Below, piece after piece: positions 2,190-57,788 of a DNA stretch of 64,000 bases. Numbering within the stretch: the stretch's first letter is position 1; the number at the start of each line of letters is the position of its first letter. Both the position numbers and the translations under genes were made by a program. The notes beneath the pieces are model-generated. The model searched no databases. It was not told the DNA's origin and worked only from the letters and a program-made list of their open reading frames with translations. Source of the DNA: Alphaproteobacteria bacterium (GTDB lineage: Bacteria > Pseudomonadota > Alphaproteobacteria > Rs-D84); the NCBI GenBank assembly GCA_017409215.1, contig JAFQTD010000036.1, forward strand, positions 14,038 to 78,037, given 5' to 3'.

Positions 2190-2345
2190 ATCTTATCTTT
2201 TTAACAGGAAATAATCTTATACAACAGCAGTTTTTTTAAACCGCCATTATGGTTAACGGATTTGATACTAGAACATCTTAAAAGCAATTGCAATAATTTT
2301 TTTCTGTTGCTATGCTATGAACAGGACCAAGGGGGGAATTTAAGT

Positions 2346-9215: not shown

Positions 9216-12200
9216 TTATTTTCTGAAACGTGGTTTCCACTTGCGTGCGCGTTCAATTAAAAAGAACAGGGCAGGTGTCAAAGTGAATGTCCACACCAAG
9301 CTGGCCAACATACCGCCAATCATAACTGCGCCCATTGCGACCTTCATACCGTCTGCAGACCACAACTGCGGTACCATACCAGCGATAACCGCAATAGAAG
9401 TCATTAACACCATATTCTTTTTTTCTTTTAATTCGTGCCACAATGCACTGTGTGCATCTTCGCCATTATTGATACGATTGATTGCAGGTTCCAACACCAA
9501 GATATTATTATTCACAACCAATCCGACCAACATAACAAAGGCCAACATCGCCCCAACGTTCATTGTTGCACCTGACAAGAACATCAGTACAAATACACCT
9601 GCGAAACTGGTCAATATTGATGTTGCAATTGTTAATGGGTGTGCCAAGGAATTTAATATAGCAGCCAACAACATATAAGTTAAAATTGTTGCCAACAAGA
9701 ATGCTGTACCAATTTCCTGTGTGCTTTCGCCCTGAACTTCTGACATACCGCCGAATGTTGCGTAATATCCTGCTTCCCATTCCATTGCGTTAATCTCAGA
9801 TTGGACTTTTGCCTGTACCGGTCCCATCGTAGATTTACCGATATTGATATCAATTTCTGTTAATCTATTTTTGTCTTTACGTCGAATGTCAGACGTTGCG
9901 CGATCCAGTTTTACTTCGCCCAATGCAGACATTGGTACCATACCCTTCTGAGAATTAATATACACATTATCAAACAAAGTTGCATTTTTAAATGGTTTTG
10001 CAAATTCCAAAATGATTGGGTATTCTTCACCATTTTCTTTGTACTTATATGTATCATTTCCAAACAGTGCGGTACGCAAAGTTGTTCCAGCATAAGAATT
10101 TTGTACCCCCCAGAAATTCATTTTTTCTTGGTCTGGGATAAATTGAGTTTCCATTGGTGGCACTTGTTGTGCGCGCACTGCTGATTGTACTTCTGGGATT
10201 TGGTTTATTGCATTGATTAATCTGTCTGCATAATCTTCACGCAATGCATCATTTTCGCCAAATACATTCAGCACCAAGTCAGCAGTTGCCCCCGATGACA
10301 ATGCTTCACCTGCCTTGATTTGTATTTCAACATCTGCGATATCTGCCAAAGTCGGCAATATTTTTTGTGCCAGCTTTTTATCAGAAATACCGCGTTCAGA
10401 AACATCGACTAATTCAATGGTCACATCAATGTTTTGCAATCCCTGGTCACCGATTTTAACGGTTGTTGCCTTGATCTCAGGGAATTGCGCCAGACGCTTT
10501 TCAATTTCGATTGCGATATTTTCAGACTTATCAAATGTTGCCCCCATTGGTGCGCGCGCTGTGATTGAAATTTCGTTTGCATCGGTTGATGGTGAAAACT
10601 CATTCCCCACAAAGCGCATTAACATAACCGAACCGATAAATATCATCACCACCAGTCCAATTACGCGCCAAGGGTGTGCGATTTGAAAATCGTACCAGCG
10701 ACGCAACCAACTGGTTTTATCGTTTTTCTGTTCGACCTTTTTTACTTGTTGTTTTTTACCGGTCAAACGCAAGAATTTTGCAATCATCATTGGTGTCAAC
10801 GTGAACGAGAACATCAACGACAGCAACGTCAAATACACAACAGTCAAACCGAATTGCACCATAAATTGACCGACGATACCCCCCATAAACGCCAATGGCA
10901 AGAACACCACTACATTCGTTCCGACACCTGCCAACACCGAAACTGCCACCTTTTTTGTTCCATCAATTGCGGCATCTTCTGGATTTTTTCCTGCACGCAT
11001 TTCCAATAATGCTGCTTCTATCAAAATAATCGCGTTTGACACCAGTGTCCCCAATGCGGACGAATATGCCAACAGTGTCATCGCATTAACGGTAAATCCA
11101 GACCCGTCCATAAAGAAGAACCCAGCAACCAAGGATGCAGGAATCACGACACCTGCAATAACCGTTGAACGCCAATTTCGTGTAAATACCAATAACACCA
11201 AGACGGTCAATATAACACCCAAAATAATACCATTAATTGTGCTGTCTGTTTCGTCTGAAATTGATATCGAAGAATCAGAAGTAATCATCATTTCAGCATT
11301 TGGAAAACGACGTGTTAAATCTGCTTGGAATTCAGGTAATTTATTATGCAACGCCTGTGAAATTTTAATTGCATTACCATCCGATGACTTTACAACAGAT
11401 GCGATAACAACAGGCTTTCCATTATAACGTGCCCCATTTTCAACATCGCGTGCTGCATCTGTAATTGTTGCGATATCTGATAATACGAAATTATTACCTT
11501 CTGCAGTTGTTAGGTGCAGATTTTCTATATCTGCCACAGATGCAAATTCACCAATAAATCGAACGTTTGAAGAATTACGACTGGTTTCGATTTTTCCCCC
11601 TGGAACATTCAAGTTATGCGCCCCCAGTGCAGACACAACGTCCATAACGGTTATACCATTTGCCGCCATAGTATCTGGGTTCATTGCGATACGTATTGCG
11701 CGTTCACGACCGCCGAAAACAGATACACTCGCGACCCCTTTTACCGCGGTAATTTTTGTAGACAAAACATCGTCTACGTATTCTTCCAAATCACGTGCAT
11801 CAGCGCCTGTTAGAACGATATCCACCACAGATTCTTCCAGTGGATTTAATTTTTCAACCATCGGTTGTTCCATATCGGATGGAAATTCCATACGCAAAGA
11901 ATCCAGCTTATTTTTAATCTCGGTTGACTTATCATTAACATTTGCCCCCAGATTAAATTCTGCCATTACCATACCGCTGTTTTCGAAAACGTATGAAGTA
12001 ATTGACTTTAATTCAGAAACTTCTGATATTGCATCTTCTGCACGTTTTATAACCTGTGATTCCAGTTCTTCTGGTGATGCCCCAGGGTACACAAACGTTG
12101 CTGTGACCATTGGAAAGTCAACAGATGGTGCGCGTTCGATATTCATTTTTGGGAATGATACCAACCCCAGAACGACCCAAACCAGAACAAACATCAGTGT

Positions 12201-12251: not shown

Positions 12252-12860
12252 TTAATTATTTAATTGAACTTTTTCACCGGCATTGATGGATGACAATATA
12301 ACAATATCGCCATTGTTTAATCCGTCTGAAACCAAAGCATTTTCTGCATCCTGATACGCAATAACGACATCGTGTGCTGTTGCGACACCGTTTTCTACAA
12401 CAAAGACTTGGTTGTTTTTGATTGCATACAAAGGCACAAAAATCCCATCTGCTGTAAATTCTGCAAATTGCAACCCGTCCTCTACATCAGCTGTTTTAAC
12501 GATATACATACCAGTGTTCAGGTCAACCCCACGTGAAACAGATTTTATTGTACCACTACCAACAGGTTGTCCCACCTTCAGTGTCTTTGCGCGTGATTTT
12601 GAAACATATGCGCGATTGTTTTTTACAGACAGTGGCTCGTACAAAGTCCCTGTTTTTGATTCTGCAATCATTGTTTCAACTGTTGTGCCATTTGTGTTAT
12701 ATACACGTGCGATATTAAACACTTCGCGTGCGTTTTCGGATGCGATTGTTGCGAATCTAAAAGTTGCCCATGCAGTCATTGCGACAATAAACGCAACGAA
12801 AAATCCATGTTTAAATTTCTTTGAATGAATTATCTGTTCAATTTTTTCCATCTTATTCAC
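12252..12860 (-). CDS. minimal RND periplasmic adaptor (membrane fusion protein, beta-barrel/MP domains only)
   Basis: 202 aa. An N-terminal TM anchor is followed by sequence resembling only the beta-barrel and membrane-proximal domains of HlyD/AcrA-type adaptors. It sits tightly between tolC and the RND pump gene. Confidence 0.65.
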   Translation of the reverse strand: MNKMEKIEQIIHSKKFKHGFFVAFIVAMTAWATFRFATIASENAREVFNIARVYNTNGTTVETMIAESKTGTLYEPLSVKNNRAYVSKSRAKTLKVGQPVGSGTIKSVSRGVDLNTGMYIVKTADVEDGLQFAEFTADGIFVPLYAIKNNQVFVVENGVATAHDVVIAYQDAENALVSDGLNNGDIVILSSINAGEKVQLNN

Positions 12861-14184
12861 CTAACTTTTTAATAGATTCTGCCGACATTAAAATGTTGTA
12901 TTTTGTATTCAGCAAAGCCAAATCCAATTGATACAGCCCTGCGGAAACATCTGCTAATTCAACGGCGGATGTTTGCCCAGATGCAAAGCGGTTTTGTGAC
13001 AGGGTATATGTTTGTGCGGCTAAATCACGTGCCTTGGTCAAGGTCGACAAGTTATCGCGCAAACGATTATATTGTGTAATTGTGTTTTCGTATTTTTCTG
13101 TGGTTAATTTTTTTGCTTTATCTAAATCTTCGCGTGCTGCGATTGCGTTCATTGCTTCAACGGTTGCGTTTGCTTTATTTAATCCGCCGTTAAAGATTGG
13201 AACTTGCAACGCAATCCCCCAGTATGCAGATTGGCTGCCTTTTTTATCGAACATATGTCCAACATCACCCGCCATTGACATATAACTATAAGACGCGGTT
13301 GCTGCCAGTGTTGGGTATGCGTTTGCTTTCTTAGATCGCGCCAAATCCTCATACATTTTTACTTGTTGGTCTAAAATATCCCATTCTGGTGTGTTTTGCA
13401 GTTTTTTTGCATTTAATTCTTTAAATTCAGATGGAAATTCATCTGTCAGATTTAATTCTTCGTTAACATCAATACCCGCCATAATTTTCAGCATTCTGTG
13501 CGCAGTATCACGATTGAATTTTGCATCAGAAACATTGATTTCCTTGGTTGCAATATCTGATTCAATTTTCAGCAGATTGCTGCGATGTGCGCGTCCTGCA
13601 TTTGTTAAACTTTTCTTGGCATTTCGTGCATTTTTTAAATCGCGTTCAGACAGCTTTACTATTTCATCTGTCATTTTTGCAGTCCAATATAAATTCGCTG
13701 CTGCATAAACGACTTCGCGTCTGGTTAATTCCTTGGCTGATTCCGACATTTTTATTGCGGATTTAACAGACTTGACTGCGTTTCCAATTTTTCCAAAAGT
13801 ATAGATGGGCTGGGTCAAAGATAAGCCTGCCTGAAAGATATTATCAGGGATTTCAATATCAGCAACATTCATATCAAACGCATCTGACAAAATCCCCCCC
13901 AGTTCTGGTGGTAAATTCACAGAACTGCTTTCAAAGGGTTTTTCAACATTAACCATACTCATATAAGATACTGTTCCGTCCAGCTTAAACCAACGATTGG
14001 CATTTGCGGAATCCAACGATGCTTCGGCTTTTTTCAGGTTTGCCTCTGCCTTTTTCAAGTCATTTGATTCTGCTGTGATTTTTTTTACCGCATCATTCAG
14101 TGATAAATCCAACGCGTTTGCAGGCACACCAAACATTACGATACACAGTGCGCCCAGCAAAGGCACGACATATTTCTTAGTCAT
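12853..14184 (-). CDS. tolC: TolC-family outer membrane efflux protein
   Basis: 443 aa with signal peptide MTKKYVVPLLGALCIVMFGVPANA. It has a two-repeat coiled-coil/beta architecture and is first in the efflux operon. Confidence 0.85.
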   Translation of the reverse strand: MTKKYVVPLLGALCIVMFGVPANALDLSLNDAVKKITAESNDLKKAEANLKKAEASLDSANANRWFKLDGTVSYMSMVNVEKPFESSSVNLPPELGGILSDAFDMNVADIEIPDNIFQAGLSLTQPIYTFGKIGNAVKSVKSAIKMSESAKELTRREVVYAAANLYWTAKMTDEIVKLSERDLKNARNAKKSLTNAGRAHRSNLLKIESDIATKEINVSDAKFNRDTAHRMLKIMAGIDVNEELNLTDEFPSEFKELNAKKLQNTPEWDILDQQVKMYEDLARSKKANAYPTLAATASYSYMSMAGDVGHMFDKKGSQSAYWGIALQVPIFNGGLNKANATVEAMNAIAAREDLDKAKKLTTEKYENTITQYNRLRDNLSTLTKARDLAAQTYTLSQNRFASGQTSAVELADVSAGLYQLDLALLNTKYNILMSAESIKKLGE

Positions 14185-14787: not shown

Positions 14788-14861
14788 TGGGGTGTCGTCT
14801 AATGGTAGGACAAGAGATTTTGGTTCTCTTTATCATGGTTCGAATCCGTGCGCCCCAACCA
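14788..14861 (+). tRNA. tRNA-Gln (anticodon TTG)
   Basis: A full cloverleaf was folded by hand. Acceptor UGGGGUG/CGCCCCA carries the U1-A72 pair typical of bacterial tRNA-Gln. D stem is GUCU/GGAC, anticodon stem AGAGA/UCUCU, loop UUUUGGU. T arm is CAUGG-UUCGAAU-CCGUG. Discriminator A and CCA are encoded. Confidence 0.85.
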
Positions 14862-14898
14862 ATATTCAAACGCCCCTGATGGGGCGTTTTAATATTGG
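14857..14898 (+). repeat. 42-bp direct repeat copy 1 (tRNA-Gln 3' end / att-like core plus terminator hairpin)
   Basis: AACCAATATTCAAACGCCCCTGATGGGGCGTTTTAATATTGG is identical to 16085-16126. Confidence 0.8.
14868..14890 (+). terminator. rho-independent terminator after tRNA-Gln
   Basis: AAACGCCCC-TGAT-GGGGCGTTTT. The same hairpin recurs inside the 42-bp direct repeat at 16096-16118. Confidence 0.6.
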
Positions 14899-15054
14899 CT
14901 TTGTTGCGCCCGTTTGATTTGAAACATCGTCCGCCTTTGGCGTGACAGGTTCGACTATGAGTAAGCGAAAACAAGCCTTGCGTAGTTTGAGCGCTAACGA
15001 ATGCGGCGCAGTGTCGGCACTGCCGACCGAGCCAATCCGTGCGCAATTTTTACA

Positions 15055-15214
15055 GTCCGAAAGTCAAATTTCGATTTTTTTCTTTCTAAATATACTTTCG
15101 AACCGCGTATAACACTCTAAAAACATTCGAACAAAGCATAATATTACAAAACCAACATAAAACCGCTCTAACCAGCATGTCTGTTCAATATGGTTGTGGG
15201 GTGCTGGCAAAACT
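15055..15214 (+). repeat. 165-bp cassette-boundary repeat, copy 1 (hairpin TTCGAAAGT...ACTTTCGAA plus inverted att-like arm)
   Basis: Roughly 75% identical to 18097-18262. It ends in TGTTCAATATGGTTGTGGGGTGCTGGCAAAAC (15183-15214), the reverse complement of the right-hand arm at 16067-16099. Confidence 0.7.
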
Positions 15215-15222
15215 AATAGATT

Positions 15223-16020
15223 TTATTTTACTTTTCTACAGATATATAACAAATGATTACTGTATCCTTGTTGATCTAATCTTTCACAGGTCCTAAAATG
15301 CCACTCTAAAAAAGCCTGATAATCTTTCTTTGGTAAATCCTCAATCAACTCACGCAAAACAGGTCCAATTCCATCGGCACTAACATTTGTTATATATTTC
15401 GTATTCGTTTTTGCAAATAACTTCTTGAAATCTTCAACATAAAAAGCAGCAAAGATTTCTTCTGGAATATCTGCTACTCTACCTTCTTTATCCATGCATC
15501 TGGTAAGCAAATCATAACATTTATGATGTCTTAAACCATATGTGGTCATTATCGTTGCACTTGATATGTATGCAAACATACAAACGCCGTTTTTCTTGGC
15601 CACACGAATTGTTTCTTTGATTGCTTGATTTTTATCTTTTTTATTAAACAAATGATACATTGGTCCTAAATTCAAAACCATATCAAAAGAATTATCTTTG
15701 AACATGCTTAAATCCAGCGCATCGCCAACCATACATTGAAAATTTTTCAACTTACGAGATTTGCGTTTCATTATTTCAACGTATTTAGGGGTTAAATCCA
15801 CAGCCGTAACATCGTAACCCATCTTTGCCAAAGCAATCGAATACCGCCCAGTTGCGGCACCAATTTCAAGTATCTTTGCACCTGGTTTCAAAAATTTTTG
15901 AATATACCGCATAGTCGTCAAATATTCCATGTTATGCGCCCGGTCTTTGATTAACCGAGAATCTTCATCATAGTCAGTATAATTGTTTATAATGATATCT
16001 TTATGTTTATTTAGTGTCAT
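15223..16020 (-). CDS. class I SAM-dependent methyltransferase
   Basis: 265 aa with methyltransferase motif I ILEIGAATGRYSIALAKMGYDVTAVDL. An extended -10 promoter TGGTATAAT lies at 16047-16055 (minus strand) and inverted att-like repeats flank the gene. Confidence 0.8.
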   Translation of the reverse strand: MTLNKHKDIIINNYTDYDEDSRLIKDRAHNMEYLTTMRYIQKFLKPGAKILEIGAATGRYSIALAKMGYDVTAVDLTPKYVEIMKRKSRKLKNFQCMVGDALDLSMFKDNSFDMVLNLGPMYHLFNKKDKNQAIKETIRVAKKNGVCMFAYISSATIMTTYGLRHHKCYDLLTRCMDKEGRVADIPEEIFAAFYVEDFKKLFAKTNTKYITNVSADGIGPVLRELIEDLPKKDYQAFLEWHFRTCERLDQQGYSNHLLYICRKVK

Positions 16021-16084
16021 ATTATAACCTTTATTTAATCATGACAATTATACCATATCAACTCGCGTTTTGCCAGCACCCCAC

Positions 16085-16126
16085 AACCAATATTCAAACG
16101 CCCCTGATGGGGCGTTTTAATATTGG
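16085..16126 (+). repeat. 42-bp direct repeat copy 2
   Basis: Identical to 14857-14898. It is preceded by CACCCCACAACC (a degenerate tRNA acceptor 3' strand). A further tRNA 3'-end copy GTGCGCCCCAACCA at 16246-16259 and a terminator at 16269-16294 follow. Confidence 0.8.
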
Positions 16127-16401
16127 ACGGGGCCAAGGTTCGTAATCTGCAACGTTAGTTGCCGGTTCGACAATGAGTAGATTTGAGAAGCGCAGCGCCA
16201 TCAAATCGTCAGGAATGCCCCGCAGGCGAAAGCCGAGGGAATTGAGTGCGCCCCAACCAAGATGTGCAACCGCCCGTTTCTGGGCGGTTTTTTGTTTGTT
16301 TTCTATTATTTTCACTGAGTTCGAAAGTTGGAGTTAAAAAATAGTGAATTTTTGATACTTTCGAACTTTTGTGGTATAATCTCAGAAAAGGATGAATTTT
16401 A

Positions 16402-16947
16402 ATGCAACCGTTATCAAATTTTCCGCAAACAATCAAAACTCCACGATTGGTGTTGCGGGTGTTGGCGCCAACAAAAGAAAACGCAGCAAAGATTTTGAAT
16501 ATTATTGAACAAAATCGTGATTATCTTATGGAGTGGCAAGGTCATTTTGGCGAATTAAAAACCATTGATGATGTGGTGGCATATTTAACAAAACGTGCTA
16601 ATCAAATTAAAACTAATCAAGGAGTCTGTTTTTATATTTACAATAACGATAATATTATTGGTCGAATTCGTTTTTTTAATATTCAAGACAATGGATGTGA
16701 AATAGGATATTGGTTGATAAAATCTGTAAATGGCAACGGATTTATGAGTGAAGCACTGCAAGCATTAGAAACAGAATTATTCAAATTTGGTTTCAGCAAA
16801 ATTACATTGGATATAGACAATGGAAATATTCATTCAGAAAATTTAGCGATACGCAACGGGTATAAATTGGAAAAACGCTTGCCAAATGCTTCATGGGCAA
16901 AATGTGTTGGTAAATGCGATTCATTGATTTATGTAAAAGAAAGATAA
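16402..16947 (+). CDS. GNAT-family N-acetyltransferase (RimJ/RimL-like)
   Basis: 181 aa with a GNAT fold (YWLIKSVNGNGFMSEALQALETELFKFGFSKITLDID). TGGTATAAT at 16372-16380 and RBS AAAGGA upstream. Confidence 0.8.
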   Translation: MQPLSNFPQTIKTPRLVLRVLAPTKENAAKILNIIEQNRDYLMEWQGHFGELKTIDDVVAYLTKRANQIKTNQGVCFYIYNNDNIIGRIRFFNIQDNGCEIGYWLIKSVNGNGFMSEALQALETELFKFGFSKITLDIDNGNIHSENLAIRNGYKLEKRLPNASWAKCVGKCDSLIYVKER

Positions 16948-17086
16948 TATTTTAATAAAATTTCTTTTTCATCCCATCAAGCTCTCGCCCAATCTCCGCC
17001 AATTCAGTTCGCGAACTGCACAGACACCCCAACCAAAATAAAACAATGCCCACCAGGGGGCAAGTCTTTGTTCGGAATACAAGTTT

Positions 17087-17836
17087 CTATTCGTGGGTTG
17101 ATTGGTTCTGTTTTTGCAAAATAATTTCATTAACAATTTGTTTAATGCGTGATGGGGCCATAAATAAATTTGGCGCATAATCCAGCACAGTATAAAAAAG
17201 TTTTTGGTCTTGGTGTATCTTGTTCCACCAACCAAGCCCTTTATTACATTGTGTTATAAAATACTTAATGTCTTTGGGGTGAAATCTGGATGTGACCCCA
17301 ATCAACAAATCATACGCATTTGTATGATTGTTAACCGGGATATCTTGCAATACAGGGTTTAACATTTTTATTTCGTTAACCATGTTTTCCATATTCATCA
17401 ATGCAACATTCTGATTTTTGTTGCTTGTAAAATGCGCTATTATTTTTCTTTTTTCTTCGTCATTCAATTCGCCCGTTACACTGTTCAAAAAGTCTAAATA
17501 TTGCTGTTTCTCTTTGGCTGTTGCATCTGGGGCGCCTTGGAATATATAATCGACATACAGTTCTGGATTTTCAATACGCAGTGGTTCAAACAAACCCAGA
17601 TAATACATATTGTTCATTACTTTTTTTTCATAGTCGGCTTCAGTAATACCATCAGGAAACTTATATTGGTGTGAAATCGGACATGCAGTAATAAAGCCAT
17701 CATCGGCCAGTCGACGTTCAAAATTCACCGCAGATGACCAATGCCCATTTTTAAACACAGCTTCCTTATCAAGGATATTGCTTATCACCTTTTGTATTTT
17801 TTTTGCATTTGAAAAATTTGAATTAGTTATTTGCAT
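17087..17836 (-). CDS. hypothetical protein (orphan, island-encoded)
   Basis: 249-aa ORF with a GGGGAA RBS and no recognisable domain. A degenerate direct att-like copy lies downstream at 17024-17066. Confidence 0.5.
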   Translation of the reverse strand: MQITNSNFSNAKKIQKVISNILDKEAVFKNGHWSSAVNFERRLADDGFITACPISHQYKFPDGITEADYEKKVMNNMYYLGLFEPLRIENPELYVDYIFQGAPDATAKEKQQYLDFLNSVTGELNDEEKRKIIAHFTSNKNQNVALMNMENMVNEIKMLNPVLQDIPVNNHTNAYDLLIGVTSRFHPKDIKYFITQCNKGLGWWNKIHQDQKLFYTVLDYAPNLFMAPSRIKQIVNEIILQKQNQSTHE

Positions 17837-18096
17837 ACGTTCCCCTGATTCATGCTGTTTATTGTATAGTATCGTCTTGTGTTTTGCAAATTTATAAACA
17901 ATTATTGATATTCTTTCCGAATATAAACCGTGGGAATTGGTAAATTATTTTGCGTTTAGTTCCAAAGATGCTGCATTGGAATTTGAACAATATCTTAAAA
18001 CAGGTTCTGGACACGCATTCGCAAAAAGACATTTTTGGAAGTAATTTATCAAGGGGCCGTAGCGCATTCCAGAGAGCAAAACAAATACCCTTTGAC

Positions 18097-18262
18097 GAGT
18101 TCGAAAGTCAAATTTCGATTTTTTATCTTTTCAAACACACTTTCGAATCCCTTATAACACTCTAAAAACATTCGAACCAACGACAATATCATAAAACTAA
18201 TGAAAATCTGCTCTAACAGGTCTTTTTATTCAAAGTGGTTGTGGTCGGTGGGCGGCCGTCAA
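18097..18262 (+). repeat. 165-bp cassette-boundary repeat, copy 2
   Basis: GAGTTCGAAAGTCAAATTTCGATTTTTTATC...GGTTGTGGTCGGTGGGCGG aligns along its full length with 15055-15214. Confidence 0.7.
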
Positions 18263-18294
18263 GGATTTTATATGCTTTTAAAACGATTTAAAAG

Positions 18295-19578
18295 CTATTG
18301 ATTACCTAAATTTCTGCGTTGTTGCATCTCCATATAATACAAATCATTAAATCGATTTTGTTTCTTTTGTTTGTTCATTAAAATTTGCTGACCTTTTTCA
18401 AACGCCTCTATTTTTGCTTTTGATTCTTCTTTTTTAGGTTCTTTGATTGCTGTTTGTTGTCCATATATTATCCTGTTTTTATGCATATCAGATATTTTGA
18501 TTAATTCATCTGTCGCCTGTTTTTGTACTTTTTCATCGTTGCGCAAATAAGCCTGTTTAATTATACGTCTATAATCGTTTGCTATCCCGTTTGAAATAAG
18601 TCCTTCGCGTGCAGAGCTGCCTATATACCTACTTAGCTTTTCCAGTTCGTATTGAGCAGACCCAAAATCACCATTTGTATTAAATTCATTATAAGCCGCC
18701 ACAAAATCTTTCGCTTTATTAATAACATCTAGAGATTTATATTGAGATTGTACCAACGAAGTTTTATCTAATACATCTAATTGATCGAGCAGTATTTTCT
18801 TTAATCTTTGTGTAGCATCTGTTTTTGATATGCCGCCATCTTTTGCCCAAGACAATATATCTCTGTATTCTTGTTTCATTTGTTCGGAAAGCAAACCTTT
18901 GTCGTTAGCTTCTCTTAGTCCAGCCCACATATTGTCGAAAGAATTAGGATCAAAATCGTTCCCTTTCTTTAAAACATCCGTCAATGCAAATACCGTTTCT
19001 GCCCCCATCTGTTTATCTTGATTCATTTGAGAGGAATTTATCGGTTTTTGCTCTTCTTTTTTAGGTTCCTTGATTGCTGTTTGTTCGATATTAGATAAGG
19101 GCGGTTGTTTGTTTTGATTTTCTTGGTGTTCTTTAATTATATTTTTTTCAACATCAGACATGGGCATCTGCTGTTCTGGAACATGTTGTGTTTTACTTTT
19201 ATGCAGCTCTTGTGTTTCTTTCAAAAAATCAGTTATACCAACATCTAATTTACGCATCGGATCCCACGTATATTCATCGTGCGCATACTCGCCAAGTGCC
19301 GACGATTTTATGTGAGACAAATCATTAGTCATATTGTTATATAATTCATTAAATTTTTCTAATTGAGAATAATCAACCCCGCGTTTAAAGTCTAATTCTT
19401 CATATATAAATTTTGTCAAAGGGTTAAAAGAATTTGCTATAAACTCGTATGCTGTTGCAGCATATGGTTGACCCGATCTTTGCATATGCCCAATCATTTG
19501 TTCTGCTTTTTGTTGTACGCTTAATAGATTCTTAACTATATCATAAAATTTTTCTGCTTGTTCTTGTGATAGTTGCAT
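18295..19578 (-). CDS. hypothetical Lys/Glu/Gln-rich protein with internal tandem duplication
   Basis: Start moved to the ATG at 19578 (RBS GAGAGGAATAAT), because the track start at 19659 lies inside the att-like repeat at 19633-19657. Motif QTAIKEPKKEE occurs twice. The DNA repeat TTTAGGTTC(T/C)TTGATTGCTGTTTGTT sits at 18421 and 19061. Confidence 0.5.
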   Translation of the reverse strand: MQLSQEQAEKFYDIVKNLLSVQQKAEQMIGHMQRSGQPYAATAYEFIANSFNPLTKFIYEELDFKRGVDYSQLEKFNELYNNMTNDLSHIKSSALGEYAHDEYTWDPMRKLDVGITDFLKETQELHKSKTQHVPEQQMPMSDVEKNIIKEHQENQNKQPPLSNIEQTAIKEPKKEEQKPINSSQMNQDKQMGAETVFALTDVLKKGNDFDPNSFDNMWAGLREANDKGLLSEQMKQEYRDILSWAKDGGISKTDATQRLKKILLDQLDVLDKTSLVQSQYKSLDVINKAKDFVAAYNEFNTNGDFGSAQYELEKLSRYIGSSAREGLISNGIANDYRRIIKQAYLRNDEKVQKQATDELIKISDMHKNRIIYGQQTAIKEPKKEESKAKIEAFEKGQQILMNKQKKQNRFNDLYYMEMQQRRNLGNQ

Positions 19579-19684
19579 ATTATTCCTCTCTATCGGTAAT
19601 AATATACCATAAAAAACATAAGTTTTCAAATCGCGCTCCGCCCACTGGCCACAACCCAAAAAAAACCAGTCATACGGCTGGTTT

Positions 19685-20467
19685 TTACTTTACTTTTTGC
19701 GATATGCCTTGCCACATAACTTTCTGTTTCTCGTTTTCAAAAATTGCGATTGGTATTTCATATACGTGGCTTTCAACACCGTTATAAAGTTCTTTGGTTA
19801 GTGCGACGTGCTTTGATGCCGCATTGTGCAATTCTTCAATACGCTTTAGGATATATGTATCGCCTATGTATTCTGGGTATCGTAAATATTCATATTCAAA
19901 TACGGGACTGCCAGTAACGATTTTGTATATCTTGGATATGTCTGTAAAATCAATTTCATCATCACTGTTACGGTTATACCATTGGTAATGTTTGTGGTTA
20001 ATACCTGGGATAGAGTTGATTCTTATATCGTCCAATCGGTCCAAGAATCTTTGTGGATTGATATATTCCAAGTTTGCACGTTTCCCATCAATAGATATGA
20101 CCTTGGTTTGCAAATCCTCAGGCTTGATATAAGTGGGACGATTTGGATTATAAAACATTTTTAAGGTTTCCAGTGTACAGTCTGGCACTTCCAGAATTGT
20201 GTCTTTATTAGTTAATTTATAAGGCACAGATTGCAGATTGATTGTCAGTGGGTGCGGCAAGTTAAAATCCACAGTGTTATAACTTTGAATTACATATTGT
20301 GGCGTACATGTTGTATATGTTAATTTATCCCCAGATTGTGTCAGGAAAACACATTCTGCCCATCTGTATCTGTTGCGGTCGTATTGTGTCCTGTATTCTA
20401 CATTCACAGGACGCGCCATACTTTTATGTTTTTCTAATACATTCGCGTTTAATGGAACGGTTAGCAT
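19685..20467 (-). CDS. hypothetical protein (orphan)
   Basis: 260-aa ORF with no recognisable motif. A terminator-like hairpin AACCAGTCATACGGCTGGTTTTT lies near 19667-19689, close to the stop. Confidence 0.45.
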   Translation of the reverse strand: MLTVPLNANVLEKHKSMARPVNVEYRTQYDRNRYRWAECVFLTQSGDKLTYTTCTPQYVIQSYNTVDFNLPHPLTINLQSVPYKLTNKDTILEVPDCTLETLKMFYNPNRPTYIKPEDLQTKVISIDGKRANLEYINPQRFLDRLDDIRINSIPGINHKHYQWYNRNSDDEIDFTDISKIYKIVTGSPVFEYEYLRYPEYIGDTYILKRIEELHNAASKHVALTKELYNGVESHVYEIPIAIFENEKQKVMWQGISQKVK

Positions 20468-20654
20468 TTTTTTCTCTTATTTCTTTATTCTCTGCCAGTT
20501 CCCCCTGTATGTCGGCATTATAAACAAGGCTGTGCTTATCGCGCAAGTAAAAACACAGTGAAACTTATATTATAAAAATATCAAGACAACATATTACGGA
20601 CTATGCAGAACATTAAACGAAAAAAAGAAGGGCGGTCCCTTCTTTTTCTTCAGC

Positions 20655-21767
20655 CTATACCTTAAAATCTTTGCGTTTACGATTACATTTAGGGTCGGTC
20701 ACACTGGGTGCATTCAGAATAGGCAGATTTTTGGGATTTTGATATTGGCAACCGTGCTCTAAAACAGTCATATCTTGAACGGCCCAACCTCTTCCAAAAT
20801 TATCAAACCCTTTGGCGCTTTTATGCAAGGCCCAACGCTTTGCGGTAATTTGTTGACGTAAATCCGGTCCCTTATAATCCTTGATTGCCTGAAATGTTTT
20901 GGGACCCAAATAGCCGTCTGCGTCTGTTCCGACAATTGATTGCAGTGTTTTTACTAAAACTTTGGCTGTGCCGTTGCCTTGATTAAAGGCAGTTGAAAAG
21001 AAATCGCCACGTAGTGCATCAGGCAGTTGGTTGAATTTATAGTTTTTATAAAAGTGACCATACGCAATATCTTGTGCGTCATGAATAGAAAATTCTGGAT
21101 TGTTTACAGAGTCTGCAAAGTATCTTTCTGTCACACCAAAACAAGTTATTCCCGCCCCATCACCAACATCAGAGCATACAGGTGCTTCGATTCTAAGTTG
21201 TGTAGCCCACGCCTTTTGGAAAGCGGGGTCGTTATGATATTTGTTGTTTGGTGGACAGTACAAATTTGCCACACGACCATCGGTATATTTAATTGCAGGT
21301 GTGCATGACTGATTAAATCTGTTAAAATCTGCCAAGCCAATAGTGTATGCAGGTTGTGCATCCCTGGTGTATTCAATCATATCTTTTATAAAATTATTTT
21401 TGCACGATAAAAAGGTGCTTGTAGTGAACGAGCTATGTCCTGCAAGACAAATTTTCATCAGGTTTCGCGCAGACAAATATCCCTGGTTTTTTGATGCTAA
21501 TTCTTCATACTGCGCAATGGCGTTATTTAAATTCTGTCCTTCGAAATGTTGTGCCAGCGCTACTTCTGCGATGCTTGGGTCGAATAAAATTGCGTTTTCT
21601 CCATCTTTATTAACACCGATATTGTTATCTGGCTGTGGCACGTTTTGCGTCAGTGACAAATCGCCAAGTGAATCCAGTTCGTTTATGATTTCGTTGTGAT
21701 AGGCCAAGGCATTTTGAATCAACAATCCAGACATTGGAATAAAGAGTATTGTAAATATCTTTCTCAT
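20655..21767 (-). CDS. secreted GH108-family muramidase with PG_binding_3 domain and unknown N-terminal extension
   Basis: Start at the ATG at 21767 (AGGAG RBS) gives signal peptide MRKIFTILFIPMSGLLIQNALA. The C-terminal half has the GH108-like block IEAPVCSDVGDGAGITCFGVT and the peptidoglycan-binding block DADGYLGPKTFQAI. The N-terminal ~190 aa are Cys-containing and of unknown fold. Confidence 0.65.
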   Translation of the reverse strand: MRKIFTILFIPMSGLLIQNALAYHNEIINELDSLGDLSLTQNVPQPDNNIGVNKDGENAILFDPSIAEVALAQHFEGQNLNNAIAQYEELASKNQGYLSARNLMKICLAGHSSFTTSTFLSCKNNFIKDMIEYTRDAQPAYTIGLADFNRFNQSCTPAIKYTDGRVANLYCPPNNKYHNDPAFQKAWATQLRIEAPVCSDVGDGAGITCFGVTERYFADSVNNPEFSIHDAQDIAYGHFYKNYKFNQLPDALRGDFFSTAFNQGNGTAKVLVKTLQSIVGTDADGYLGPKTFQAIKDYKGPDLRQQITAKRWALHKSAKGFDNFGRGWAVQDMTVLEHGCQYQNPKNLPILNAPSVTDPKCNRKRKDFKV

Positions 21768-21786
21768 AAAAAAACTCCTGCTTTTT

Positions 21787-22812
21787 TTACAACGCATCAG
21801 AACAATTTTCTGCAACTTCGATTAATTTCTTAATTACACTGATTTGCGATGCGTTAAATGCAGTTGCAACCGCGCTAGAAACAGTTGCGCCTGCAGCCAA
21901 AACATTTGCGGTGGTATTTAAGTTTTTTTCTTTTTGTTCTGCGCCTGTGGTACTATCATTTCGAATGTTTTTGCTGTTTGCAAGTGCGCTGACAATGGTT
22001 CCTGCGCCACCTGTGGTTGCGGTTGCTATTGATGATATTTTTGCACCTGTTGCGCGTTTATCGATTTTCGATAAGTCTATATAGTCATAACCCTCACACG
22101 CTGTGATTACATCAGCGGCATCAAATGTAGGTTCGCCTGAGATTTGTGCTGCCTTATATGATAATCTTAAATCAGACATTGCGTTGATGCAATTTTCAAC
22201 TTGGTCTTTTAATGATTGGTCTGTTTTATTTTTGTCTGCGATAATTGCCCCTGCAACACCTGTCACAGTGGTACCTGCCAACAATCCTGTTCTTAAATTG
22301 CCCAGATTTTTTGATTTTTTCTGCAGTTCATCCGTATTGTCTGTTGCCTCAGCCTGCTTTTCTTCTGAGGTACCAAAATCTTCAAAGTTAAGATTTTCTA
22401 CGTCATTGGAAAGCTGATCCAAAGCACTTTCTGTTGCTTTACCAGCTGTTTGTGTACCTTTAAGTGTTTCTCTGGTTTTCTCCAGTCGTACAGATAATGC
22501 TTTGTCTATACCTGCTTTTTTTATCCCGGCAACTGTTGCGCCGACCCCTAAACCCGTTCCGACACCAGTTATCGCGGTGTTTATTCCGGCCATTTTTTTT
22601 AATTCATCCAGACTATCTTCTATTCCATTGCATTCCCTATAAACAGCGCCCAGCGCTTCGTCCAATGGTAAAGGTTCCGCATCGGCAAAACCAGGGCACA
22701 ACATAACCATAACAACAAAGTGCTTGTAAATTTTCACTGTATTCTCCTTTGCCAAGAATTGTATCATAAATACCAACTTGAAACAAGTGTGAATCTTGTT
22801 TTTTTTTCCCAA
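21787..22812 (-). CDS. secreted Ala/Gly/Thr-rich protein, paralog of 57789-58727
   Basis: Signal peptide ...HFVVMVMLCPGFADA. Shared blocks with the paralog: YxxCxGIxDxLxxLKKMAGINTAIT.VGT..G.GATV.GI.K and KEKNLNT..NVLA......ATA..FNA.QIS.IKK..EVA..C. The true start may be an internal Met near 22767. Confidence 0.55.
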   Translation of the reverse strand: MGKKNKIHTCFKLVFMIQFLAKENTVKIYKHFVVMVMLCPGFADAEPLPLDEALGAVYRECNGIEDSLDELKKMAGINTAITGVGTGLGVGATVAGIKKAGIDKALSVRLEKTRETLKGTQTAGKATESALDQLSNDVENLNFEDFGTSEEKQAEATDNTDELQKKSKNLGNLRTGLLAGTTVTGVAGAIIADKNKTDQSLKDQVENCINAMSDLRLSYKAAQISGEPTFDAADVITACEGYDYIDLSKIDKRATGAKISSIATATTGGAGTIVSALANSKNIRNDSTTGAEQKEKNLNTTANVLAAGATVSSAVATAFNASQISVIKKLIEVAENCSDAL

Positions 22813-22982
22813 GGTGGCGGATAGATATTTTTTGAAAGATGTTAAAAAAATAAAAGGTTTAAATATGATTGTTCGGTCGTCAGATACGGAACAGATAAAA
22901 AAACACGAAAAAGCAAAAATTATATTAAACTTGTGTTGAAATGCATAAATTTTAAGTGTATGATGGTTGCGTTCTAAAACTT

Positions 22983-23057
22983 GCTCCCATCGTCTAGCGG
23001 TTAGGACACCAGATTCTCATTCTGGTAACACGGGTTCGATTCCCGTTGGGAGTGCCA
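22983..23057 (+). tRNA. tRNA-Glu (anticodon CTC as read)
   Basis: Cloverleaf folded by hand. Acceptor GCUCCCA/UGGGAGU, D stem GUCU/GGAC, anticodon stem CCAGA/UCUGG, loop UUCUCAU, T arm ACGGG-UUCGAUU-CCCGU. CCA is encoded. Confidence 0.8.
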
Positions 23058-23623: not shown

Positions 23624-24694
23624 TTAACCTAAGGCAGCAGTTATTTGGTCTTGCATTTGAAAAGTTCCCAAAACAACCCATGCAATAATTGCTGAAACTA
23701 TTAATATGCCAATACTGTTTAGAATATTTGAAACGCGCTCCATTTTTCTGACGGATTCTTCCAGATAATCGTTTGCAATTTTATTCAAATTTTCATCAAA
23801 CCCATTCATATCTGCATAAATAATCAAGTCGCCAATAATTTCATCATCTGGGAAATTGCGCCCTGTATTTGTCAGCGCAACCCCCAGGTTATCACCATTT
23901 GCGATATAATGAAGCGTGTTGTCCAAAATGCTACGCAGATATCTGTTTGCATTATCTGCCAACAGTCTAAGTGCATCTGGAATTGTTCCGCCGGCCTTAA
24001 CAATTGCCGCCAAAGACATCAGCCAACTAACAGAAACCTGAATTTTATAAACGTTCCAAGGTGGCAGTTTATCAAAAAGTACACGCAATTTGCCAGACCA
24101 GTTTGCCAGACTTAACCAAACCAAGGAAATCACAAGCGCAAAAACAATAAAAAACACATACCAATAATTAATTGATATTTCGGACAGCACAACCAATGAA
24201 CGCGCCATGCCGCGCCAAACAATGGTGTTGCCTGCAACATCGGCCAACGGTGGCACCAGATAAATTCCAACCATAATAATGATACCAAATGTCAGTGCCA
24301 ACAAAAACAGTGGGTATGCGATTGCGCTGGTCATTGCGCGTCTAATCCGACCTGTTCCTTCTACTACGCGCCCAACATTTTCTAGTGCAACTGCCAGGTC
24401 AGATAAATTCCCAGAAGAAACCAACAGTGTTTCATCGGGTGGCACCCATCCACGTGTGACCTCTGAAAAAGTCATACCGCGCTCCAGACCATATTGCCAC
24501 TGTCGCATAACAATTGCGAATGGTTCGCGTGGCTTTGTGCCATTTTTTGATTCGATTGCTTCCAATCGTTCAAGCGCATTAATCAACGTAAAATCATTTC
24601 GCAATAACGAAGCCAACTTGCGACACAGCGCCATACGTTTTTCCGTACTGGTGCGAAAAACCCATTTTGCATACAGTAATTCTAGTTTATTCAT
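23624..24694 (-). CDS. type II secretion / type IV pilus platform protein GspF/PilC family
   Basis: 356 aa with three TM segments and paired cytoplasmic domains typical of GspF. Confidence 0.85.
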   Translation of the reverse strand: MNKLELLYAKWVFRTSTEKRMALCRKLASLLRNDFTLINALERLEAIESKNGTKPREPFAIVMRQWQYGLERGMTFSEVTRGWVPPDETLLVSSGNLSDLAVALENVGRVVEGTGRIRRAMTSAIAYPLFLLALTFGIIIMVGIYLVPPLADVAGNTIVWRGMARSLVVLSEISINYWYVFFIVFALVISLVWLSLANWSGKLRVLFDKLPPWNVYKIQVSVSWLMSLAAIVKAGGTIPDALRLLADNANRYLRSILDNTLHYIANGDNLGVALTNTGRNFPDDEIIGDLIIYADMNGFDENLNKIANDYLEESVRKMERVSNILNSIGILIVSAIIAWVVLGTFQMQDQITAALG

Positions 24695-24695
24695 A

Positions 24696-26330
24696 TTAAT
24701 ATGCCCCAGGTTCGTTTACATATCCGACCCATCGTTCCAGTTCATCTATGCTAATAATTCCCTGCAACATCAATGCTGATGCGGCTTCCTTTAATGTTCG
24801 TCCATTCATATTTTCCAACCAATATCGAAATGCATCGTCGGTTTTGCCTGACAGCGCCAGTCCCAAGAATTCGCTATTTGTAATGATAATTTCACCTGCC
24901 TTAACGCGTCCCAGTGTGCCTGACCCGTTGCAGTGTGGGCAACCTGCGCCACGCAAATATGCCTGACGTACCCCCAGTTCACCATACATTTCCATTATTC
25001 GTTTATATGCGCCGCGTTCTGGATGGTTTTCCAGTGGTTCGCGACAATGCGGGCAAACCTTTTTGAACAGTCGCATAGAAACAAGTCCGCGCATCAAAGT
25101 TTCTTCTTTTAATTTAAATGGCTCTATTCCCAAGTCTAACAAACGCGTCAACGCAGCCATTGCAGAATTTGCGTGCAATGTTGTCCAAACGTTATGCCCA
25201 GACAATGCGCCACGTACGGTCAGTTGTGCCGCGGCCAAGGTGCGAATTTCCCCGACCATCAGTGTATCTGGGTCGCTTCGCAATGCAGCAGCCAATGCTT
25301 CGACATATTTTTCTTCGCGTTGTTCTTCGTTTGTTGTGTTTACCACAGGCATCTGACGTGCGCCAAAAATTTTCTGTTCAACAGGATTTTCGACGGTAAT
25401 CAAATTAATTTCGTAATTTCTCTCTTTTAACATCAAGGACATATTGCGAACAAGTGTTGTTGATTTACCAGAGCTGGTTGGTCCCGCAACAATTACCAAT
25501 CCTGTTGGGAAAGAGCGCATACGTGCCAACAATCTTTGTTCATATGGGCCAAATTCTTGTTCTGTCTTTATGCCCTGTGATGGGTTGTCGTACAGCAGTC
25601 GCATAACGACATATCGGCTGCCAAAAGCGATTGGGTTAAATTGCATACGCACACCCAGCACCCCAGACGGCAGATACAAATCCTTTGTTCCGCGCAATGG
25701 TGTTCGCCCGTCTTTTTGTGCAGATTGATACTCGTTTTGTGCATAGTTTGCATTTGACATATCGGACGAAGCGAATGCAGCACGCACAAAAGATTCACCC
25801 CATTGTGAATTGTATTCCATTACTGGTTGCATACTGCCGTCTATGCGGAAATAGATTGTTGTCTGGTCTGCGACTTCGATATGTACGTCAGAAACCTTTT
25901 GTGATGCAGCCTTGGCGATAATATCGACAAAATCCTTTTGCATCTGATTATCAAAGTCCACACGTGAACGCCCAGTTCCGCCAATGCGCATTTCCTGTGT
26001 TTTGTATATATTAGAAATCAGGCTTAAATCAGAATAAAAAGGTGTGTTAACAACGCGCCCACGTCGTTTTAACAGGTCCAAAAAAGACAAAACACGTCCA
26101 TCATAACGGTGGGTTCGCGATATGATAATTTCACCACCTGTAAAGTACGCAACCAGTCCCTGCGTATCGTGTGGTAATTCAAACGCGGCACCTGTTGCGG
26201 TCAGCAAACGATTTCCATTGGAAAACAGATAATCAATAATGTCTTTGGATTCTGCGTTTTCCAACCCCAACGGTATCGAAGGTTTTTCTGTTGCGTCTAT
26301 GATATCAAGATTTTTGGTTTTTTTTACCAT
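24696..26330 (-). CDS. GspE/PilB-family secretion ATPase
   Basis: 544 aa with Walker A GPTSSGKSTTL and the tetracysteine CPHC...CPHC zinc motif typical of GspE/PilB. An N-terminal domain is present. Confidence 0.9.
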   Translation of the reverse strand: MVKKTKNLDIIDATEKPSIPLGLENAESKDIIDYLFSNGNRLLTATGAAFELPHDTQGLVAYFTGGEIIISRTHRYDGRVLSFLDLLKRRGRVVNTPFYSDLSLISNIYKTQEMRIGGTGRSRVDFDNQMQKDFVDIIAKAASQKVSDVHIEVADQTTIYFRIDGSMQPVMEYNSQWGESFVRAAFASSDMSNANYAQNEYQSAQKDGRTPLRGTKDLYLPSGVLGVRMQFNPIAFGSRYVVMRLLYDNPSQGIKTEQEFGPYEQRLLARMRSFPTGLVIVAGPTSSGKSTTLVRNMSLMLKERNYEINLITVENPVEQKIFGARQMPVVNTTNEEQREEKYVEALAAALRSDPDTLMVGEIRTLAAAQLTVRGALSGHNVWTTLHANSAMAALTRLLDLGIEPFKLKEETLMRGLVSMRLFKKVCPHCREPLENHPERGAYKRIMEMYGELGVRQAYLRGAGCPHCNGSGTLGRVKAGEIIITNSEFLGLALSGKTDDAFRYWLENMNGRTLKEAASALMLQGIISIDELERWVGYVNEPGAY

Positions 26331-26339
26331 AATATACTC

Positions 26340-28305: not shown

Positions 28306-28392
28306 AAAACTCTCTCTCTTGATATCTTTGTGTAATTATAACACAAAAACTAAAACCAAGGCAAACATTTATAATCGTAAATTTAATATTTT

Positions 28393-57553: not shown

Positions 57554-57788
57554 TAAAAACTTTTTTTAGAAACAAAAAAATGATATAATTCCTTTTGACA
57601 ACAGTAAGTGTTGTTGGGTGTGGAAACCCAAATTCTAGGTTGTGCTGGTATTTACCGGCACAAAAAACTCCAATGCGCAAGTTGGAGGGCATTTGAATAT
57701 ATCGAATAGAATGCACTATTTTCCTAGAATAATAGTTTCCAACCTCCAACCACCTGTTGTTCAGGTGTTTTTTTGTATAGGAGAGATT

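Follow-up and report, generated by a model that had tools for sequence, protein, structure and literature searches.

Our comparative analysis concerns a stretch of 64,000 nucleotides of alphaproteobacterial DNA (GenBank assembly GCA_017409215.1, contig JAFQTD010000036.1, positions 14,038 to 78,037; hereafter the window), in which a variable region separates the genes for tRNA-Gln(UUG) (14788-14861, + strand) and tRNA-Glu(CUC) (22983-23057, + strand), its right anchor. From 14788 to 19665 this region comprises five or more small integrative units without a recombinase, stacked in an array at the 3′ end of tRNA-Gln(UUG). Comparison of related loci shows that these units were inserted by site-specific recombination at a core of 6–9 bp, which is the tRNA's own 3′ tail, and that each insertion adds a copy of the core that can itself be targeted. 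The array is also eroding, as a deletion at 17919/17920 shows, and variable accessory DNA makes up the right third of the region (19685-22982). We consider it probable (roughly 60%) that the units are non-autonomous derivatives of elements encoding a large serine recombinase (LSR), stacked at tRNA-Gln and mobilised in trans.

The window matches exactly a part of the 175-kb metagenomic contig ERZ27256761 k141_725070. With its TolC-like gene (12853-14184) as an anchor, 80 loci were gathered from species-representative genomes, all of them metagenome-assembled genomes (MAGs) of gut or rumen Alphaproteobacteria and many named Candidatus Enterousia (65–93% protein identity). The comparison set comprised the 64 Candidatus Enterousia-like loci containing tRNA-Gln (labels such as L001 denote related loci); all comparisons are between metagenome-assembled contigs, and the visible part of the window's genome is 64 kb. 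The tRNA-Gln gene (57.7 bits) is identical in 64 of 64 related loci and its last bases, CCCCAACCA (14853-14861, +), represent the primary integration core, with the T-loop GTTCGAA lying 11 nt upstream of CAACCA. Downstream of this gene the loci are hypervariable. The distance to tRNA-Glu ranges from 405, 427 or 465 nt up to 6.8 kb in relatives and reaches 8.1 kb in the window, most clusters formed by the 504 open reading frames (ORFs) of the islands are found in at most five loci, and many contigs of relatives end within about 100 nt of tRNA-Gln. Even contigs of the same species (93–97% nucleotide identity) differ in having additional units between the tRNA and the first unit of the window, and one of them (L083) has a 57-nt deletion between short repeats.

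Three comparisons of empty and occupied loci, each with collinear flanks, place the insertions at the core. The empty locus L065 contains a structured element, X (see below), in the context X...GTGCGCCCCAACC followed directly by AAAAATTAAATCGCCC; its close relative L062 carries an extra 1226 bp at this junction, ending ...GCGTTTCGCCCGCCGCCCACAACC immediately before AAAAATTAAATCGCCC. L041 and L001 are empty in that a terminator and X follow the tRNA, and in the window a 1.2-kb methyltransferase unit lies between the tRNA and that terminator-X pair. Finally, L050 and L067 show X, core, terminator and the gene for a 249-aa protein in succession, and the window has a 0.77-kb unit encoding a GNAT acetyltransferase between the X core and that terminator. 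Only CC(C/A)CAACC(A) is duplicated in all three of these comparisons, which involve single-gene units of 0.8–1.2 kb. A first-pass annotation, made from the letters of the window, had proposed that site-specific integration took place several times at the tRNA-Gln 3′ end. Because of the empty/occupied pairs and the strain differences, this model holds, and secondary cores within the array are targets as well.

The repeats of the window fit this picture. A BLAST self-comparison matched 14853-14898 to 16081-16126 (46 nt, 98%, E 8e-12) and 14848-14902 to 16246-16302 (E 0.008), and the methyltransferase gene is enclosed by a perfect 23-bp inverted repeat (15191-15213 and 16067-16089). All three exact instances of the 10-mer CCCCAACCAA in the 64 kb are on the + strand and inside the region. 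In addition, a weight matrix trained exclusively on cassette sites of other genomes was run over both strands of the window. Its top six sites, at 15183-15215(-), 16065-16097(+), 18228-18260(-), 14837-14869(+), 17011-17043(+) and 19633-19665(+), scored 21.0–28.7 bits, with no score above 19.4 bits in 30 shuffles, and coincide with the six copies named in the first-pass annotation. Direct cores start at 14853, 16081, 16251, 17027 and 19651, and we found that a seventh copy, a direct one of the tRNA tail (16246-16260), had been overlooked. The earlier description of one repeat family derived from the tRNA 3′ end and its terminator stands only for the 6–9-bp core CC(C/A)CAACCA, together with a loosely similar GC-rich arm; the terminator is common to only two copies. 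The cassette-like build extends over 14788-19665, and the right third from 19685 to 22982 shows no such sites. The largest repeat, 15048-15260 versus 18091-18305 (218 nt, 74%, E 2e-33), and a module TTCGAAAGT-N28-ACTTTCGAA with three copies, absent elsewhere in the window (five exact matches, all in the region, against 0.56 expected), had also been missed. No copies of the repeat sites were found elsewhere in the 64 kb, all of them lying at this one locus, and no target-site duplication was seen.

An alignment of 40 module copies together with the site catalogue reveals a common unit design. The left end consists of the core and a terminator hairpin, optionally followed by one of three elements (X, its diverged copy A, or Z) or by the gene for an 81-aa GIY-YIG nuclease, and then by a promoter-like module, Mod, with the consensus AGTTCGAAAGT-N28-ACTTTCGAAC and a TATAAT-like box. 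Mod is often followed by Y, a stretch of about 90–120 nt found in many units which contains a third TTCGAA and has an inverted site at its end. One cargo gene comes next, in either orientation and usually with its own promoter, and the unit closes with a GC-rich right arm (TTCGCG/ACTCGCG-N16-CAACCA) and the core. Units measure 0.17–1.3 kb, mostly hold one gene, and contain no integrase or replication gene. Promoter and terminator scans fit this layout: Mod-2 is the best promoter, in front of the GNAT gene, and terminators follow the cores at 16268 and 17047. Unit architecture and arm motif are the same in at least 12 genomes whose cargo genes are unrelated. The stretch 14788-15172 is 90–92% identical to L002, L007 and L013, whose genes behind the inverted site differ, and the scaffold of GIY-YIG gene and Mod at 17920-18147 recurs in 8–10 loci with other cargo; overall, scaffolds are 86–95% identical between genomes despite the differing cargo. 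The inverted site is a copy of the inner 16–25 nt of the right arm of its own unit. All 23 bp agree in the methyltransferase cassette, 18 of 25 positions do so in the cassette of the 427-aa protein, and similar pairs are also present in L003, L006, L024, L046, L056, L057 and L062. Since every inverted copy has its partner in the right end of the cassette to which it belongs, these copies are a built-in part of the unit. They had been explained as later inversions or decay, a view we abandon: they form only the ends of the 218-nt repeat, that is, of a conserved module of about 190 nt (Mod, Y and inverted site) seen in at least 12 genomes.

Which enzyme could move such units? The absence of a tyrosine or serine recombinase from the window, already noted in the first-pass annotation, was confirmed by phmmer with five recombinases from relatives against the six-frame translation, by Pfam on 30 ORFs and by reading the remaining translations, which are recognisable housekeeping genes. 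In related loci, LSRs lie directly after tRNA-Gln in L059, L075, L022, L026, L078 and L102. The Resolvase, Recombinase and zinc-ribbon domains are all present in L059, L075, L022 and L026, and also in L102 according to precomputed Pfam; the LSR of L078 has the Resolvase and Recombinase domains only. The LSR gene is always antisense to the tRNA, and its last ~45 codons span Mod and the tRNA terminator hairpin up to the tRNA tail. The cassette Mod is homologous to the corresponding segment in this terminal part of the LSR gene (nhmmer E 1e-8 to 3e-4, with elements at three different tRNAs). Because of this homology, the units can be said to keep the left end of an LSR element, namely core, terminator and Mod; in the window, the LSR trace amounts to the Mod relic of the gene end, about 60 nt. 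A complete LSR element of 4.7 kb in L022 has ends that repeat only CAACCA. These LSRs are at most about 25% identical to characterised ones. A database search returned 1177 relatives. All of those examined adjoin the 3′ end of a tRNA gene (for Gln-CUG, Asn, Tyr, Glu-UUC or Thr), and their cargo is often restriction-modification, retron-like or ATPase genes. The phage and plasmid collections yielded only relatives of at most 33% identity. Separately, one identical LSR (P0029) is found beside tRNA-Glu-UUC in L097, L098 and L099 with a conserved 50-aa ORF directly upstream and three different neighbouring cargo sets (AAA and S8 protease; AAA_13/SMC-like; HTH and reverse transcriptase), and L051 holds a fragment of an LSR gene. 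Apparent LSR C-terminal remnants that tblastn reported beside many tRNAs were mostly translations of the antisense strand of the tRNA and were not used as evidence; the matches in L046, L028 and L064 coincide with an intact GIY-YIG gene encoded on the opposite strand, and this search was replaced by the nucleotide profile test.

In the left half-sites, the spacing of the motifs also fits serine recombinases. From a TTCG-centred motif to CAACCA there are 11 nt in the tRNA, where the motif is the T-loop (65 of 65), and 16–17 nt in about 16 cassette right ends. A short identity of 6–9 bp is typical of serine integrases and not of tyrosine integrases that target tRNAs. In serine integrases, the motif for the zinc-ribbon domain lies 5 bp closer to the centre in the chromosomal attachment site, attB, than in that of the element, attP (PMC3783163), and the difference between 11 and 16 nt equals this shift. 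Because of the Mod homology, the 6–9-bp identity and the spacing, we read the tRNA as a candidate attB (GTTCGAA-N11-CAACCA) and the joined unit ends as a candidate attP (TTCGCG-N16-CAACCA). The units, which on this reading keep both ends of an LSR element, would be moved by an LSR encoded elsewhere in the genome or supplied by a transient element. For the methyltransferase unit, the predicted circle would read ...ACTCGCGTTTTGCCAGCACCCCACAACCA joined to ATATTCAAACGCCCC...A-Mod. Owing to the inverted internal site, each cargo gene would furthermore form a symmetrically ended cassette that sits behind a conserved scaffold, and the occurrence of the same scaffold with different cargo across genomes would follow from this.

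Several observations speak against a derivation of the units from LSR elements. LSRs occur at tRNA-Gln in only about seven of the 64 related loci, tyrosine integrases adjoin the same tRNA in L036 (PF00589, 1.4e-12) and L039, and the 64-kb window holds no recombinase, the rest of the genome being outside our view. Right halves of the putative attB and attP contain no convincing mirror motif, and the tails of X and Z do not have the GTTCGAA-N11 motif, yet they are targets in L062 and in the window. Among the contigs compared there was neither an excised circle nor a restored empty site from one population, and none of the cargo families turned up in opposite orientations between its sites. The derivation also does not explain the role of the inverted internal site, nor the inverted repeats of 130–136 bp that flank the LSR gene in the subclade around L059. 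These repeats are 100% identical in ten loci (L059, L075, L089, L090, L091, L092, L093, L095, L103 and L104) and 98.5% identical in L102; this subclade comprises 12 loci, and one contig is too short for both arms. The last 7–9 nt of the targeted tRNA, the terminator and part of Mod make up the proximal arm, in which the LSR C-terminus is encoded. Upstream of the LSR start is the distal arm, which terminates in an inverted copy of the tail of the targeted tRNA, a layout that the inverted site of the cassettes resembles. Arms vary between genomes and are identical or nearly so within each, and contigs often stop just past the distal arm. Long inverted repeats were found neither around more distant LSR relatives nor around L022, L026 and L078, which limits the 130-bp repeat to the subclade that shares at least 75% identity with L059. 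Within 8 kb of the L091 element, no third, direct copy of the tRNA-Asn tail was detected. The LSR 3′ end points toward the tRNA in 12 of 12 L059-like loci (at least 75% identical), as well as in L022, L026 and six more distant loci, and this constant orientation makes simple inversion switching unlikely.

A more far-reaching model, which we regard as doubtful, would describe the locus as an integron-like gene-capture platform driven by a serine recombinase at tRNA 3′ ends of these gut Alphaproteobacteria. It would combine a recombinase "head", in which C-terminus, terminator and tRNA tail share one arm of a perfect 130-bp inverted repeat, with miniature, non-autonomous one-gene cassettes whose ends are symmetrical (inverted) and which are exchanged behind a conserved promoter scaffold in a natural recombinase-mediated cassette exchange, and with X and Z as small structured, tail-bearing RNAs that are also secondary landing pads. 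Alternatively, the repeats could be fossil scars of attL and attR left by large integrase islands that were whittled down by deletion, so that the units were never mobile and the differences between genomes reflect differential deletion and homologous recombination among the repeated cores, terminators and Mod modules. Decay clearly takes place, as the junction at 17919/17920 cuts both the GIY-YIG gene and a unit end, and the 57-nt deletion in L083, the LSR gene fragment in L051 and the loss of the tail from A, an X copy, are in line with it. The 46-bp duplicate of the window has a loop variant, TGAT, that is not found in relatives, which fits homology-driven events. However, the three independent empty/occupied comparisons show intact 0.8–1.2-kb units of terminator, promoter, gene and arm, bounded by the core within collinear flanks, and repeated deletion would not yield an architecture and arm motif as regular as that seen in at least 12 genomes with unrelated cargo. 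We therefore regard fossil scars as an unlikely explanation.

It is also conceivable that a tyrosine integrase such as those directly after the tRNA in L036 and L039 inserted the units, which would then be satellites lacking an integrase, similar to cis-mobilizable elements (CIMEs), and that their likeness to serine elements is incidental to co-residence at a hotspot. An identity of 14–17 nt is typical of the att cores of tyrosine integrases, and the tails of X and Z copy 14–17 nt of the tRNA (GTGCGCCCCAACCA). Moreover, tRNA islands built by tyrosine recombinases and strewn with partial tRNAs are well documented (10.1101/2020.12.28.424599). The cargo units, however, share only 6–9 bp with the tRNA, the module at their left end has its homologue at the end of the LSR gene, the N16 of the right arm as opposed to N11 is as expected for serine attP and attB, and no att repeat could be defined for the L036 and L039 elements in the available sequence, all of which renders this origin quite improbable. 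Even less credit can be given to a swap of cargo through conserved scaffolds by homologous recombination, for example after DNA uptake, with the repeats serving as expression or insulation signals. The homology arms would then be the terminator, A or GIY-YIG gene, Mod and Y to the left of the cargo, and core and terminator to its right. The 86–95% identity of scaffolds with differing cargo, the good promoter in Mod, the terminator at the start of every unit, and the ComEC and type IV pilus genes of the window would suit such a process. But the junctions lie at the 8–9-bp core and not at variable points of homology, and an inverted left site that matches its own right arm is not predicted by exchange through flanking homology; we consider this scenario very improbable.

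Other known types of rearrangement found no support or were rejected on the structure of the sites. Inversion switching or a shufflon is not supported, as no cargo was seen flipped and each LSR locus has one orientation. For an integron, neither IntI nor another tyrosine recombinase is present in the window, the sites are a GC-rich arm plus CCACAACCA and do not contain RYYYAAC/GTTRRRY cores, and the hairpins are terminators with perfect stems. With regard to Xer dif modules, the 28-bp dif layout consists of a XerC arm, a 6-bp spacer and a XerD arm, with modules in alternating orientation; by inspection, only GTGCGC resembles a XerC arm and nothing like the XerD arm TTATGTTAAAT is present, the dif site of the lineage itself not having been identified. 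Finally, two cassettes have inverted ends as in a miniature inverted-repeat transposable element or mobile insertion cassette, but there is no target duplication and a single locus is occupied.

Among the core-bounded units, the smallest are the elements X and Z. X (16127-16258 in the window; also L041:8501-8632 and L019:7249-7379, among others) is present behind the tRNA terminator of at least 14 relatives and has GTGCGCCCCAACCA as its end. An alignment of 18 sequences supports a four-armed fold in which 11 pairs change on both sides, a number reached by 0 of 500 shuffles, and 95% of the cells are paired compared to at most 40% for slid partners. The one-sided changes are all of the G-U type, which is tolerated on the + strand only. 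Z is an unrelated element of about 130 nt with four hairpins and the same tail (end ...CACACCCCTGTGTGCGCCCCAACCA), covaries by eye, and takes the place of X in nine loci (L058, where it lies 110-254 nt after the tRNA-Gln start, L015, L009, L012, L017, L019, L020, L068 and L074). In Rfam searches with E up to 10, no family reached its threshold for X or Z. X and Z may be small RNAs (sRNAs), tRNA-tail mimics or accessories of single-strand recombination. A fragment of transfer-messenger RNA (tmRNA), or a permuted tmRNA, was considered for X and A and rejected, as ARAGORN found none and the Rfam tmRNA_permuted model reached 15.7 bits against a gathering threshold of 47, the match lying on the tRNA itself. 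A conserved peptide in X was rejected as well because 2-nt indels break the frame and L071 has no ATG.

From left to right, the array begins with a hairpin with an 18-bp stem directly after the tRNA (14859-14898, +), which acts as the terminator, marks where unit 1 starts on the left and is duplicated at 16087-16126. It is followed by A (14899-15050, +), a diverged X copy without the CCCAACCA tail (nhmmer E 1.6e-4) that belongs to the scaffold common to L002, L007 and L013, and by Mod-1 (15054-15113, +), which reads (A)GTCCGAAAGT-N29-ACTTTCGAAC followed by TATAAC, is promoter-like and has its homologue in the 3′ coding end of the LSR genes of relatives. Y-1 (15114-15182, +), a conserved AT-rich stretch with the third TTCGAA motif, leads from Mod to the inverted site of the methyltransferase cassette (15183-15215, -; 28.7 bits). 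Cargo 1, a class-I S-adenosylmethionine (SAM)-dependent methyltransferase of 265 aa (15223-16020, -), has its own promoter at 16047-16076(-), and the right end of the unit, with an ACTCGCG-N16-CAACCA arm and the core (CCACAACCA), is located at 16065-16097 (+; 28.5 bits). The second copy of the hairpin terminator (16087-16126, +), which in relatives lies directly 3′ of the tRNA, precedes X (+) with its secondary core at 16246-16260. The GNAT unit starts with a terminator hairpin and T-run detected by the terminator scan (16268-16299, +), continues with Mod-2 (16318-16380, +), the region's best promoter match (TTGATA-17-TATAAT with TG) and predicted to drive the GNAT gene, and encodes cargo 2, which by family match is a RimL-like GNAT acetyltransferase (Acetyltransf_3; 16402-16947, +). 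Its right end (17011-17043, +; 21.8 bits) reads GTTCGCG-N16-CAACCA with the core CCCCAACCA.

The next terminator (17047-17062) is homologous to the one following the core in L050, L067, L003, L012, L015 and L020. Cargo 3 is a lineage-restricted orphan of 249 aa with a confident all-alpha model (17087-17836, -). Behind it, the deletion at 17919/17920 took the right end of this unit and the 5′ half of a GIY-YIG gene, leaving a 3′ remnant of that gene (17920-18046, +). In eight relatives the gene is intact: an 81-aa GIY-YIG protein (PF01541, 1.5e-16) is encoded directly after tRNA-Gln in L028, L046, L064, L008 and L043, and elsewhere in L022, L009 and L056. Between the GIY-YIG gene and Mod-3 (18098-18158, +, assigned by the module alignment) lies the motif CCGTAGCGCATTCCAGAGAGCAAAA (18057-18082), also present after X in L080. 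The last cassette of the array has an inverted site at 18228-18260 (-; 27.5 bits), which corresponds at 18 of 25 positions to the inverse of 19633-19660, and contains as cargo 4 an orphan of 427 aa (18295-19578, -) with a promoter at 19601-19629(-). Within this gene, a 48-nt direct repeat (85%; 18411-18458 and 19038-19085) encodes a repeated QTAIKEPKKEE-like stretch. The right end of the cassette, AATCGCG-N16-CAACCC (19633-19665, +; 21.0 bits), is the last recognisable site of the array.

The remaining block (19685-22812, -) has no recognisable sites, is found in few relatives and encodes a 260-aa orphan, a secreted GH108 muramidase with GH108 and PG_binding_3 domains, and an Ala-rich secreted protein of 341 aa. 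In L015, which has two identical tRNA-Gln genes 1.7 kb apart (7599-7672 and 9301-9374), the block of 341-aa, GH108 and 260-aa genes stands behind the second copy in the orientation opposite to the window. A reading of the translations revealed a paralogue of the Ala-rich protein (21787-22812) 35 kb away at 57639-58724, without a Pfam match. The GC content is 31–37% over 15.1–20.5 kb compared to 40–45% in the flanks, which are formed by a conserved MarR-TolC-MFP-RND operon on the left and by tRNA-Glu and then type IV pilus genes on the right. Type IV pilus-like clusters at 2205-6209 and 23624-28335 (PilB, PilC, PilO-like and several large proteins without a family match) flank the region, and a ComEC gene is located at 55601-57565.

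With regard to cargo, the initial assignment of accessory and orphan genes to the interval between the two tRNAs was correct: besides a generic class-I methyltransferase, a RimL-like GNAT and the muramidase, it encodes proteins of 249, 427, 260 and 341 aa for which profile and sequence searches of Pfam, NCBIfam, PADLOC, PHROGs and PDB returned no match, including the three that had been called unassignable (249, 260 and 427 aa). The 249-aa family comprises 26 clusters, all from MAGs of Alphaproteobacteria, and its AlphaFold model (predicted local distance difference test, pLDDT, 87; all-alpha) has no Foldseek match in PDB. Cargo genes of relatives include APH-like kinases, proteases and Slam/lipoprotein pairs, and L025:3585-5012 encodes an ABC-F protein of the ribosomal-protection type (NCBIfam NF000355, 381 bits with a cut-off of 380).

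Accretion at tRNA islands is a known principle. The tycheposon islands of Prochlorococcus likewise grow at a tRNA hotspot where new elements push older ones inward, and hold partial tRNA copies and degenerate elements in a hypervariable island, with most genomes lacking an active element (10.1101/2020.12.28.424599). The units described here are far smaller (0.17–1.3 kb, without an integrase or replication gene), share 6–9 bp with the tRNA, have a fixed architecture and are linked to a serine and not a tyrosine recombinase. Staphylococcal and enterococcal cassette chromosome elements (SCCmec, psi-SCC and composite islands) with their Ccr recombinases are also LSR elements at the 3′ end of one conserved gene, have short direct and terminal inverted repeats, and form tandem arrays including recombinase-less cassettes presumed to be mobilised in trans (PMC6222049). 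Our system differs from them in its target (a tRNA 3′ end instead of rlmH), in cassettes about ten times smaller, in LSRs at most about 25% identical to characterised ones, and in a recombinase gene that reads into the target and is flanked in one subclade by perfect 130-bp inverted repeats. Similar to integron cassettes and clusters of attC sites lacking integron-integrases (CALINs), the array stacks units at one site that mostly hold one gene each, with varied and frequently resistance-like functions, and has no recombinase nearby; unlike them, it has no IntI, attI or attC, its sites mimic a tRNA tail, its units bring their own promoter and terminator, and cargo orientation varies. The dif (pdif) modules of Acinetobacter plasmids are small modules without a recombinase as well, with inversely oriented short sites, which are shuffled between replicons by an enzyme presumably encoded elsewhere (PMC6449649, PMC13141974). 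In contrast to these, the units lack the XerC/XerD layout and are chromosomal at a tRNA, their inverted sites occur only in the Mod-Y module, and direct repeats also bound them. A further parallel is offered by the CIMEs known from the accretion of integrative and conjugative elements (ICEs) in streptococci, which are flanked by att sites, contain no recombination genes, and stand in tandem with an integrase element or replace it. CIMEs, however, derive from ICEs with tyrosine integrases and span kilobases with many genes, and we know of no conserved miniature architecture described for them. We are not aware of earlier descriptions of such a miniature unit of standardised build, of its link to a tRNA-targeting LSR family, of its inverted internal site or of the structured elements that accompany it.

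Overall, our comparison reveals a compact unit architecture and a candidate attB/attP pair for an uncharacterised family of tRNA-targeting LSRs, a class of enzymes that is sought for genome engineering, together with two unannotated, covarying RNA-like elements linked to tRNA-Gln. The proposed derivation makes testable predictions, namely that recombinase-less cassettes would be mobilised in trans and that the 11- versus 16-nt motif spacing would distinguish the two attachment sites. For an uncultured gut lineage with small genomes, the array represents a pocket of fast-turnover accessory genes at a single tRNA, which in relatives includes genes for ABC-F proteins of the ribosomal-protection type as well as kinase-like and acetyltransferase-like genes.

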